Assembly (NCBI GenBank): GCA_004524535.1
Contig: SDNY01000086.1
Span: forward strand, 1 to 15,587
Direction of reading: 5' to 3'
Length of the DNA stretch: 15,587 bases
From: Promethearchaeota archaeon
GTDB taxonomy: Archaea; Asgardarchaeota; Lokiarchaeia; Sigyniarchaeales; SOKP01
Both the position numbers and the translations under genes were made by a program. The notes under the pieces are model-generated. The model worked only from the letters and a program-made list of their open reading frames with translations. It did no database searches and was not told the DNA's origin. Positions 2,215 through 15,514 of the stretch are shown here, one piece after another (the first letter of the stretch is position 1; the number at the start of each line of letters is the position of its first letter).

Positions 2215-2502
2215 AAAACTTAAAAATAGAACTCAAAAGTTAACTCTTTTTATCTTTTTTTAATATTTTTAATAATTTTAATAACTTAAAGAGATTAAAA
2301 AAAAAAGATATGATTACCGTTTTAAATTAGCGGAAGACCTTTTGGAGGACATTAAATCTTTTTCTAAAAAAATAAACTTAGATTAAATAGTAATTAATTA
2401 TGTGCTAAACACATAAAAAAAGTGAAAAAACATCATGACTAGATACATCAATTTTTTTTAGGTATTGACATTTTGATGTTGAAATTCCAACAACTTGAGA
2501 TC

Positions 2503-2515
2503 AAAAAAAAAAAAA
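2503..2515 (-). terminator. Oligo-T terminator candidate for cdhD
   Basis: A13 on + strand (T13 on -) about 40 nt downstream of the cdhD stop. Archaeal intrinsic terminators are U-rich. Confidence 0.45.
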
Positions 2516-2552
2516 GAATTATAATAAAATTTATAAAAAAATAAAATTTGAA

Positions 2553-3737
2553 TCAACGCTTCAAATTTGCGGAAGCCCAATCGTAATATCCTTTATCATC
2601 CATAACTTTTGGTATCTCTGCAAAAAATTGTGCTGTGATATCCTTCACGTGCTTTGCCGCTATTGGATGGAACATCATTGCAAGATCTAATCCTACCAAA
2701 GATAAGCATAATGCATTAATGACTTCCCATATTGGGCCTCGATACTGTCTTAATCCCCATTCAGGAGCTTGCTTTTCGCTCATCCATGCCTCACGAGCAC
2801 CCCACGCGTTTGTAGTACCTCCACTGATTGGATAAGCTAAATCTTTTTCGCCTAAAAGTCCAGCAATGCGCATTCTTTGGTAAATACTAAAGGAATACTC
2901 CATACCATAGCCTAATGTAGCACAGGTAGGGTCCATTACTATGCGATTTGGCGGAAGTCCTAACTCTATAGCGTCTTTATTCATTTTAATTTGATTATTA
3001 AGGTCTAAACTCGTCCACAGGAGACAATTATGATCGTATTTAACAGCTAATGGGATTTAATGGCAAATTGGGAAATCCAATTCGCATACATCTTCCCATG
3101 TAGCTTTATCTGCAGCAGAGAGCATTAAAACTTCGCTTTCAGTGGCTGCAGCGGTAGCTTTAAACATTTCGACATCTTTTTCTTTATTTCCAGAGCATCC
3201 AATTATTACAGGAACATCAACTGCTTGAAGAATTTCTTCTAAATACCTTACAGACTGACTAACTGGTGCGTCTCCCATAGCAGGGTCGATTTCTAATGAA
3301 TGAAATGTGATCGACTCAGCTCCAAACTTATTTACAGCAAATTTTGCCCATTCAGCAGGATGTCCTAAGACATCTCCATATTCTTGTTTGATTGGCTTTG
3401 GAAGCATCATTTTTGACCCCATATCAAACACATCGTAGGTTACCAGAGGAGGATGGGGATTTCTTTTATCAAGTCCTAAAAAGTTGTAAAATGGAGGTAC
3501 TTTTTCACCGCCAATTGTACAAGTTTTTCCGTTTGATCGAATGAATTGGATTGTTTCGATTTCTCCAGGAAAATTTATATCAAGCGAAAATTTTGTAGGC
3601 GTCCATTCAGCTTTTCCGAGCTTTGGAATTCCAACAGCCCCGGCTGCTGTTGATACGATGCTAGGTAATACTTGAAATTCTAAATAATCGGCTACTAGAT
3701 CTACGTCCACAAGTTCAAGTTCTTCGGTATCTTTCAT
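2553..3737 (-). CDS. cdhD: Acetyl-CoA decarbonylase/synthase (CODH/ACS) delta subunit (corrinoid Fe-S protein small subunit); intron-containing, join(3087..3737, 2553..3056), 384 aa spliced
   Basis: ORFs 3057-3737 and 2553-2984 are in the same frame and are the N- and C-terminal parts of CdhD (IGGEK.PPFY, DVFD, PAEWAK, VDVPVIIGCSGN.EKD; RIVMDPT..LGYGMEYS, TNAWGAREAW, GPIWE, MMFHP). Removing 3057-3086 gives a continuous ...SAADKATWEDV|IPLAVKYDHNCLLWTSLDLNNQIKMNK. The true start may be ATT at 3776. Confidence 0.9.
3057..3086 (-). other. 30-nt BHB-type intron in cdhD mRNA
   Basis: Minus-strand RNA: UGGGAA GAUG UA|U GCGAAUUGG AUUUC CCAAUUUGC CAUU AA|A UCCCA. Central helix GAUG/CAUU, bulges UAU and AAA, 9-bp intron stem, exon helices AUGGGA/UCCCAU and AGCUA/UAGCU. 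The intron ends in an in-frame UAA. Confidence 0.85.
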
Positions 3738-3971
3738 TAATTCTGCTAATTTCTTACTAAGATCTTCGAAAGAAATTTTACATCACGTTATATTTCGTTT
3801 TTTAATATTTAAATTGGTAAAACTATAAATTTAATTATTGAAATTAATAATGATTTAAATACATAGCGCGACGAAATTAGTCATTTAAGTTCAAAAATAT
3901 TAAAGAATTAAAGAGAAAATTTTATCAATCTGATCGCTATTCGAAGAAATCCTTCATTATTATATTTTCAC

Positions 3972-14239: not shown

Positions 14240-15514
14240 TTATTTCTTTTCTTTTTCCAATTTCTTTTTGATTAAAAAACCCATTTTGCTCTGAAGTCCA
14301 AACAGAGGAATAAAACCATAACTTAAATTTTGATTAAAGGTACTAGCTGTTTCATAAGTTGCTAAGTTCATATCATATATTCCATAAGGAGATTCCCTTG
14401 CTACAACCTCTGCGCTTCCTTTAAATAATTTTACTTTAACGCTACCAGTTACTTTTTTGTTTATTTCATTTATAAAAGCATCTAATGCATCTTTTAAAGG
14501 ATCAACCCATAATCCCTCATAAGCTAACTCAGACCATCTCTGATCTACCATGTTTTTGAAGGAATTTTCTTGCTTAGTACATACATATTTCTCAAGATCT
14601 TTATGCGCTTTAATAAGCATTAATGCTGCAGGAACTTCATAAGTTTCTCTTGATTTTAATCCAATGGCTCGATCTTCCATGTGTTCTATTCTTCCAACAC
14701 CATGCTTACATCCTAAATCGTGTAATGTTCTTAATAAGTCAATACTACTCATCTTTTCCCCATTTAAACCTACTGGAACTCCTTCTTCAAAATTAATAGT
14801 TATATATTCAGGCTCATTGGGAGCCTTCTCAGGAGCAATTGTCCATTCTCTCGAATCTTCAGGCGGTTCAATTTCCGGGTGTTCTAAAATATCACATTCT
14901 GCACTTCTTCCAAAAAGATTCTCATCAATGCTGTATTTCTTATATTTATTGACTGGAATACCATGTCTTTCTGCGTATTTGACTTCCTCATCTCGCCCCA
15001 TATTCCATTCAATTAAGGGTTGTAATACCTCGATTTCTGGAGCGTACGCATTTGCTGTAATATTAATTCTAATCTGATCGTTTCCTTTCCCAGTACACCC
15101 ATGTGCTACTACGGAAATTCCTTCCTTTTTAGCAATTTTAATTGCTTCTATTGCAATTAAAGGTCTCCCTACGGCAGTGCTTAACGGATATATCCCTTGA
15201 TATAACCCATTGGCTTTAATTGTAGGAAAAACATAGTCTTTTACAAATTTTTCTTTTAAATCTACTGTGAAATGTTTTACCGCACCTAATTTATACGCTT
15301 TTTCTTCGATTTCTTCAAACCTTGTTGGATCAGCAAATTCTTGACCTAAATCAGCTGTAAATGTATAGATTTTGGCGCTATATGTTTCTTGAAGCCACTT
15401 AATCATGCAGGAAGTGTTTGATCATACATACATCAATTGTATATATTCTAATCCTCCTGAATACATTAATAAAATCTTATCGTATTTATCCTTTTTGGGT
15501 CCTAATTGATTCAT
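14240..15514 (-). CDS. argG: Argininosuccinate synthase; intron-containing, join(15448..15514, 14240..15417), 414 aa spliced
   Basis: The body has YPLSTA.GRP, HGCTGKGNDQ.R, YSIDENL.GRS.E, GLKSRE.YE.P. The ORF-track protein lacks the N-terminal PP-loop. ATG 15514 reads MNQLGPKKDKYDKILLMYSGGL, and removing 15418-15447 restores YSGGLDTSCMIKWL. Confidence 0.93.
15418..15447 (-). other. 30-nt BHB-type intron in argG mRNA
   Basis: Minus-strand RNA: CAGGAG GAUU AG|A AUAUAUACA AUUGA UGUAUGUAU GAUC AA|A CACUUCCUG. Central helix GAUU/GAUC, bulges AGA and AAA, 9-bp intron stem with one G-U, exon helix CAGGA/UCCUG. In-frame UGA at 15424-15422. Confidence 0.88.

Follow-up and report, generated by a model that had tools for sequence, protein, structure and literature searches.

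How can a cell obtain argininosuccinate synthase from an argG gene whose frame is broken within the Asp codon of its SGGLDTS motif? The question is raised by the window, that is, the whole 15,587-nucleotide (nt) contig analysed here (C8 of G000, the source Promethearchaeota genome; G0xx denotes the compared relatives). G000 is a bin of 3.66 Mb in 198 contigs, with 99% completeness, 4.4% contamination and a G+C content of 30.4%, and it contains a single argG match. The minus-strand frame reads MNQLGPKKDKYDKILLMYSGGL-EYIQLMYV*-SNTSCMIKW, which confirms the 30-nt insertion with an in-frame TGA that an earlier note on this DNA had placed in the Asp codon. Judging from sequence comparisons, these 30 nt (15418..15447, minus strand) are very probably a tRNA-type intron of the bulge-helix-bulge (BHB) kind in the argG pre-mRNA, which would be cut by the splicing endonuclease EndA before the exons are joined by RtcB. 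At least a dozen introns of this type, that of argG included, interrupt protein genes of G000.

Exon 1 (15448..15514, minus strand) starts with ATG at 15514; its 22 codons and the initial G of the Asp codon run colinear with the N-termini of 21 relatives, which have no interruption. Exon 2 (14240..15417, minus strand) begins with the AC of the same codon, ends with the stop at 14240-14242, and matches positions 16-162 of the 162 of the Arginosuc_synth profile, followed by Arginosuc_syn_C. The list of open reading frames (ORFs) shows here an ORF of 30 amino acids (aa; 15422..15514) and one of 388 aa (14240..15406) that starts at an internal Met and is devoid of the first 15 of the 162 positions of the N-terminal synthase profile (Pfam). 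Those 15 positions carry SGGLDTS, the ATP-binding PP-loop. Deletion of 15418..15447 fuses the G at 15448 to the AC at 15417-15416 and gives GGL-D-TSCMIKW. The unspliced frame yields only a 30-aa peptide, as the earlier note had maintained, and the spliced frame yields an argininosuccinate synthase of 414 aa.

The putative intron consists of 1 nt of the first bulge, one 9-nt strand of the inner hairpin h′, a 5-nt loop, the second 9-nt strand of h′, 4 nt of the central helix H and 2 nt of the second bulge. In H, the exon strand GAUU (15450..15453, minus strand) pairs with GAUC of the intron (15420-15423), one of the four base pairs (bp) being G·U. The two bulges beside it (15449-15447 and 15419-15417) are of 3 nt each. 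The hairpin h′ occupies 15424..15446 (minus strand) with 9 bp (15446-15438 with 15432-15424) and the loop at 15437-15433. The 5′ exon strand of the outer helix h (15454..15458, minus strand) pairs with 15412-15416 in exon 2, forming 4 bp with one A·A mismatch (15455/15415). The motif is a full hBHBh′: H, the bulges, h′ and the loop were present as the earlier note had drawn them, and its drawing was incomplete in that the exon-exon helix h also exists. Its statement that the EndA cut rule, applied without adjustment, gives L-D-T-S held when 15418..15447 was removed in silico. argG thus has the helix geometry of a BHB intron, and the predicted cuts within its bulges would give a functional product.

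Comparison of alleles indicates that this structure is maintained. Among 40 genomes including G000, argG was found in 25, with 24 full-length loci (that of G000 among them), and a 30-nt insert lies at exactly the Asp codon in three of these: G000, its congener G008 (98% ArgG identity) and G011, which belongs to another genus (76%). A search of public contigs with a pattern that fixed only the exon codons and a 30-nt gap recovered 19 with the insert, 15 from metagenomes and four from genomes, the latter including the G008 and G011 records. Public contigs with the same argG allele are labelled MAG (metagenome-assembled genome), Promethearchaeota or Promethearchaeia archaeon, and the host is a Loki-type Asgard archaeon. 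The 19 contigs and the window form an alignment of 20 rows with 18 distinct sequences, across which 97.7% of the 306 cells of the hBHBh′ structure are paired, compared with 21-56% when the partners are slid by 1-3 columns. The alignment that the earlier note had proposed as a check showed compensatory stem changes: both sides have changed in six pairs (16 cells), and not one of 500 shuffles came up to the alignment in pairing, in covariation score or in the count of doubly changed cells. In h′, 96.3% of cells are paired and five of the nine pairs are compensatory. H is paired in all 18 distinct sequences (100%), with three of its four pairs varying on one side. In h (98.6% paired), the pair 15458/15412 is AU in 13 sequences, UA in 4 and GU in 1, and its pairing is kept via synonymous codon changes in both exons. 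Once the insert is taken out in silico according to the EndA cut rule, none of the 19 contigs has a stop in the 92-156 codons available. In exon 2, the dN/dS ratio computed on the first 90 codons has a median of 0.058 and a maximum of 0.104 (58 pairs with dS > 0.1). The intron-bearing argG alleles are therefore working genes with an RNA structure under selection, in agreement with the earlier note's view that argG is not a pseudogene.

Inserts of the same class were found in genes that a cell cannot do without. In the RNA polymerase A′ gene of G000 (C17, minus strand), a 31-nt insert follows T-Y-D-E-D-G at about 344, and a 30-nt insert with a canonical BHB lies between G-H-F-G-H and I-E-L-A at about 470 (contig coordinates). 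The N-terminal domain of the polymerase is uninterrupted (933 nt) in 17 of the 20 relatives of families f1 and f2 listed, G008 among them, and G006 and G010 each have one 30-nt insert at the second site (GHFGH|IELA). The three inserts at this site share a common layout and are unrelated in sequence; in each, the intron strand of H matches the third base of the exon Gly codon (GGUC/GGCU, GGAC/GUCU and GGGC/GCCC). The H changes at this site are exon-intron covariation. For the 31-nt insert at the first site, a canonical BHB was considered and rejected, as it has a 7-bp hairpin and at best three of four H pairs; it is a relaxed motif at most. In a survey of the polymerase N-terminal domain in 301 genomes, 11 of the 68 of family f1 gave two matches or E > 1e-93, and these split or weakened matches may represent further interruptions. 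In the ribosomal protein uL11 gene (C188:169 in G000), an intron at G-P-A-V|G-P is present in five of 14 aligned genomes, all of one genus; it is 30 nt long in G000, G008 and G004 and 28 nt long in G002 and G005, and H changes in a matching manner. Further inserts a few codons upstream in the uL11 genes of G006, G002, G005 and G007 bring the number of sites to as many as three within about 25 codons. Because polymerase A′ and uL11 are each single-copy in G000, their inserts cannot mark dead genes and must be removed for the cell to survive.

The window itself contains a second intron, in cdhD. Its 30 nt (3057..3086, minus strand) have the same layout as those of argG, with H formed by 3092-3089 and 3062-3059, h′ of 9 bp and a 5-nt loop; the predicted cuts fall after 3087 and after 3057, in phase 0. 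Exon 1 (3087..3737, minus strand) matches positions 7-138 of the 387 of the CdhD profile and exon 2 (2553..3056, minus strand) matches positions 160-227. The intron splits cdhD into two ORFs, 3057..3737 and 2553..2984; the frame of exon 2 is open from 3056, and the ORF list has only the part from an internal ATG. Exactly these 30 nt are missing in the closest relative, G008, which reads W-E-E-V|I-P-L-A-V where the cut rule gives W-E-D-V|I-P-L-A-V in G000. The earlier note, whose reading of argG is supported, thus underestimated the scope, both within the window and within the genome.

Scans of G000 for the specific architecture extended the class. A strict scan (H 4 bp, h′ at least 7 bp) gave, for a length L = 30 with h′ of at least 9 bp, five ORF-restoring cases among 26 structural matches, and for L = 28, 29, 31, 32 and 33 together five among 109. 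An architecture-specific scan (four of four H pairs, at least eight of nine h′ pairs, 5-nt loop) gave 22 ORF-restoring cases among 757 matches, and controls with the same stem and other loops gave 7/750 (L 27), 5/793 (L 29), 11/790 (L 31) and 12/734 (L 33). In nine of the 22, profile matches provide family evidence that the flanks are consecutive parts of one protein: argG, cdhD, RNA polymerase A′, ACS/CdhC, uL11, POR, a Ras-like GTPase, an EF-2-like GTPase and CODH alpha. The profile starts at position 21 of L11_N in uL11, at 41 in POR and at 4 in the Ras-like GTPase, and the EF-2-like protein matches 2-35 and then 48-187. A tenth ORF-restoring match (C101:21650), upstream of rtcB, has no family evidence and falls in a winged helix-turn-helix (wHTH) protein of no known function. 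The remaining 12 have AT-rich, low-complexity flanks and were taken as chance by context alone; C161:2444, C165:13577, C34:9178, C183:3960, C61:13973 and C138:52505 were judged probable chance matches on account of such flanks. Apart from the genes located above, further ORF-restoring mini-introns of G000 (29-32 nt) lie at C129:9466 (EF-2-like GTPase), C100:12039 (CODH alpha), C32:3634 (ACS/CdhC), C161:11886 (Ras-like GTPase), C189:15070 (POR), C113:6561 (B12-binding domain), C26:5412 and C26:5940 (both in a MoxR ATPase) and C101:21650 (the wHTH protein adjoining rtcB). Removal of the 32-nt insert in the B12-binding domain restores G-L-D-G-H-D-R-G.

A check that made no use of the motif led to the same class. 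The 697,707 nt of G008 sequence used for comparison were aligned to G000 by blastn, with 511,831 nt in high-scoring segment pairs, and revealed 39 indels of 15-150 nt. Among the 38 listed, 11 fall at places where the allele without the insert has an ORF of 795 nt or more, and BHB mini-introns specific to G000 account for five of them: those of cdhD (30 nt), CODH alpha (30 nt), the EF-2-like GTPase (30 nt) and the MoxR-type ATPase (29 and 31 nt). The EF-2-like intron has one U·U mismatch in h′, and its predicted spliced product matches G008 at Q-M-T-D-S-D-D-E-E-Q. The other six are a 45-nt coding tandem repeat, a 72-nt and a 79-nt indel, an AT-rich 25-mer, a 31-mer and a 24-nt hairpin found only in G008. 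The 31-nt indel in an ORF at C188:28780 was rejected, since it shows no convincing BHB or frame. The cut rule restores exactly the sequence of intron-free relatives in cdhD, the EF-2-like GTPase, CODH alpha, MoxR (two introns), RNA polymerase A′ (site 2) and uL11. With the two polymerase inserts, seven coding introns are specific to G000 in roughly 0.5-0.7 Mb compared, which by extrapolation makes it likely that the genome has tens of them.

These introns come and go between close strains. Such strain-level turnover, together with unrelated copies at identical sites, may reflect an active insertion or homing mechanism. A broader proposal can be built on these observations: Loki-type Asgard archaea (Promethearchaeia) would carry tens of near-uniform mini-introns of 28-32 nt per genome (typically 1+9+5+9+4+2 = 30), also in polymerase and ribosomal-protein genes; their splicing would be routine and essential; and they would be spread by active insertion or homing rather than reflect slow vertical decay. 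We regard the chances that this generalisation is right or wrong as evenly balanced.

The reaction proposed for argG would proceed as follows. In the folded transcript, H would be formed between 4 nt of exon 1 and 4 nt close to the 3′ end of the intron, and would be flanked by the two 3-nt bulges, the exon-exon helix h and the 9-bp intron hairpin h′. A heteromeric EndA would cut after the second nucleotide of each bulge, RtcB would join the exons and thereby remake the GAC Asp codon of SGGLDTS, and RtcB would probably also circularise the 30-mer. Only the spliced mRNA would then yield the full-length synthase. That EndA and RtcB are the enzymes, and that the reaction is efficient, is an inference. 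Two matches to EndA exceed the Pfam cut-off in G000, both in ORFs of 201 aa (C100 and C84), and RtcB is encoded as well (561 bits). The C100 protein has 3p1z_B and 3ajv_B as its closest PDB entries (E 7.6e-37), and over the 180 residues aligned to 3p1z_B its Tyr, His and Lys positions are conserved; the C84 protein is a weaker match, with the His missing in the alignment. The pair appears to conform to a two-subunit pattern of one catalytic (Tyr-His-Lys) and one structural subunit of about 200 aa each. It fits the Asgard EndA described in PMC5829648, an (αβ)2 enzyme with a broad-specificity L1 loop (a crenarchaeal-type insert of the alpha subunit), and also the finding, in a 2026 preprint (bioRxiv 10.64898/2026.10.13.758758), of two EndA paralogues in 44 of 60 Asgard genomes.

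Several observations weigh against splicing of argG or dilute the evidence for it. The other 21 of the 24 argG loci are uninterrupted (GGxxTxGAYAC), including those of six genomes of the same genus. The predicted fold has an energy of -17.2 kcal/mol (z = -1.73), which seven of 200 shuffles equal, and the minimum free energy (MFE) structure keeps h′ but replaces H by a different outer helix. Such an alternative outer helix, in the 6-bp shifted register of the MFE structure, was considered and rejected, with 85.2% of cells paired and no compensatory changes compared with 98.6% for the canonical h. Loose BHB-like motifs are common in G000: scans with H of 4 bp, h′ of at least 4 bp and L 15-150, combined with an ORF-restoration filter, were uninformative (2635 hits versus 2623-2729 for shifted-cut controls). 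Because ORF-restoring motifs are as frequent in such controls, a BHB structure by itself is weak evidence in a genome so rich in AT, and it takes the architecture-specific scan together with homology to separate signal from noise. In four RNA-labelled runs, which hold 5-7% of the window's sampled words, reads assembled at 90% likeness gave five short contigs that cover 14480-14665 and 14976-15350 only; none reaches 15418..15447, a result that speaks neither for nor against splicing. Sixteen DNA runs contain 36-100% of the sampled words. Finally, translation in archaea is coupled to transcription, and splicing would have to outrun the ribosomes.

Of the other accounts of the insert, removal by a different route retains the most credit, and it is unlikely: the 30 nt might be eliminated at the DNA level in part of the population, excised by another RNase and ligase, or spliced only as a conditional switch with most transcripts left unspliced. 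The intron-free allele in close relatives makes DNA-level variants conceivable, but the insert has precisely the geometry of an EndA substrate, and G000 encodes the enzymes; self-splicing is opposed by the length of 30 nt, which is too short, and by an Rfam search of the window, which gave no match. That argG is a decaying pseudogene and the insert a functionless insertion scar is very improbable. The in-frame stop after 30 codons and the prevalence of intron-free loci (21 of 24) would suit such decay; against it, this is the only argG in a 99%-complete genome, the 19 other intron-bearing alleles are open after removal with dN/dS of about 0.06, insert length and pairing are kept through compensatory changes, and the single-copy RNA polymerase A′ and uL11 genes have inserts of the same class.

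We give slightly less credence still to the idea that the insert stays in the mRNA and is overcome by read-through, recoding or a translational bypass (hopping) as in phage T4 gene 60, even though a hairpin with a stop right after the break resembles bypass signals. Read-through is excluded because all three stops occur inside the inserts (TGA in argG, TAA in cdhD and the EF-2-like gene, TAG in the polymerase gene) and several inserts, with lengths of 28, 29, 31 or 32 nt, change the reading frame. The split codons of the phase-1 and phase-2 cases are beyond what hopping can rebuild, and the part that covaries is the exon-intron helix H with its 3-nt bulges, which is the signature of EndA. An artefact of assembly (which the earlier note had named as a ground for refutation) or of binning is hardly credible at all: the insert was found on a short contig (15,587 nt) of a metagenome bin of 198 contigs with 4.4% contamination, but its presence in 19 other contigs of independent assemblies and in two other species-level genomes rules out an assembly error. 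A BHB intron removed by EndA and RtcB is thus the explanation that we prefer.

Precedents exist for the kind of intron proposed here. The intron of crenarchaeal cbf5 was reportedly the subject of papers by Watanabe (2002), Yoshinari (2006) and Yokobori (2009). Unconventional cytoplasmic splicing is also known in eukaryotes, where the HAC1/XBP1 mRNA is processed by Ire1 and a tRNA ligase or RtcB. As in the proposal for argG, the spliceosome plays no part: an endonuclease and a tRNA-type ligase take a short intron out of the mRNA, and this alters the frame or the product; HAC1/XBP1 differ in the nuclease (Ire1), in having other stem-loop signals and in being a single regulated target. PMC5829648 cites Tanaka 2011 on RtcB and HAC1. 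The cbf5 pre-mRNA has a BHB intron in Crenarchaeota (Desulfurococcales and Sulfolobales), according to PMC2738675. Its hosts have a heteromeric (αβ)2 EndA, and this splicing endonuclease excises it, as would be the case for the argG intron; both introns have been gained and lost between relatives. By contrast, the host gene here is argG, the phylum is Asgard/Promethearchaeota, at least 12 genes of one genome are affected by introns of near-uniform length (28-32 nt, mostly 30) and layout, and presence differs between strains about 98% identical in ArgG. Introns of tRNA and rRNA, as treated in PMC11291895 and the 2026 preprint, have the same hBHBh′ motif, cut positions and, presumably, enzymes, whereas the host RNA here is an mRNA, so that codons have to accommodate the exon halves of the motif at their synonymous sites.

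As regards novelty, the BHB intron in an mRNA is a known kind of element; novel here are the lineage of the host, the genes concerned, how many such introns one genome has, their uniform build of 30 nt and their turnover between strains. On archaeal pre-mRNA introns, the introduction of PMC5829648 (2018) and the reference list of PMC12397907 (2025) cite only three cbf5 papers, and the accessible parts of PMC11291895 and of the preprint concern intron-rich Asgard tRNA genes only. No description of BHB introns in Asgard protein genes was found in the full-text literature searched, which leaves out most subscription journals; in that literature, tRNA-type mRNA introns of archaea are an oddity confined to a single crenarchaeal gene, cbf5. 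Asgard archaea, the archaeal group nearest to eukaryotes, now appear to interrupt many protein genes, including essential ones, with enzymatically spliced introns, and the source archaeon probably has to splice many of its mRNAs. If this is true at the RNA level, Asgard cells must separate splicing from coupled translation or time the two, a problem at the heart of hypotheses on how the nucleus arose. Such genomes would also be systematically mis-annotated, with argG, cdhD, rpoA1, rpl11 and other genes split or truncated by gene callers, and the fast gain and loss of uniform 30-nt introns would offer a tractable system for studying how introns spread.

The tRNA genes of G000 were surveyed with ARAGORN, which found 22, of which 13 have an intron; two of these 'introns' exceed 1 kb and are likely to be spurious. 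The tRNA introns reported are of 8-70 nt and none is of 30 nt, in the output of a tool that reports one intron per gene and misses multi-intron genes. A count of only 22 tRNA genes in a 99%-complete genome fits with many tRNA genes being hidden by multiple introns. At C188:21796, outside long ORFs, G000 has an insert of 31 nt that G008 lacks; it forms a hairpin of 9 bp with a 5-nt loop, and its flanks resemble a tRNA T-arm. The same intron build may therefore occur in RNA genes too.

Some further observations concern individual loci. At C32 ~3790-3830 (plus strand), the frame of ACS/CdhC is broken a second time, some 48 codons past the first intron: it is lost after D-P-K-G-P and continues in a different frame, probably owing to another intron that is not of 30 nt. 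The 24-nt hairpin insert of G008 lies within a 1-kb ORF in the sequence homologous to C100:21306 and is possibly a mini-intron specific to that strain. Besides argG and cdhD, the window codes for a Ras/Roc-type small GTPase and for CODH/ACS subunits (Pfam). Between the Ras-like GTPase gene and cdhD lies an AT-rich intergenic stretch of 330 nt (2226..2555), which is single-copy in G000 and corresponds to only 41 nt in G008.

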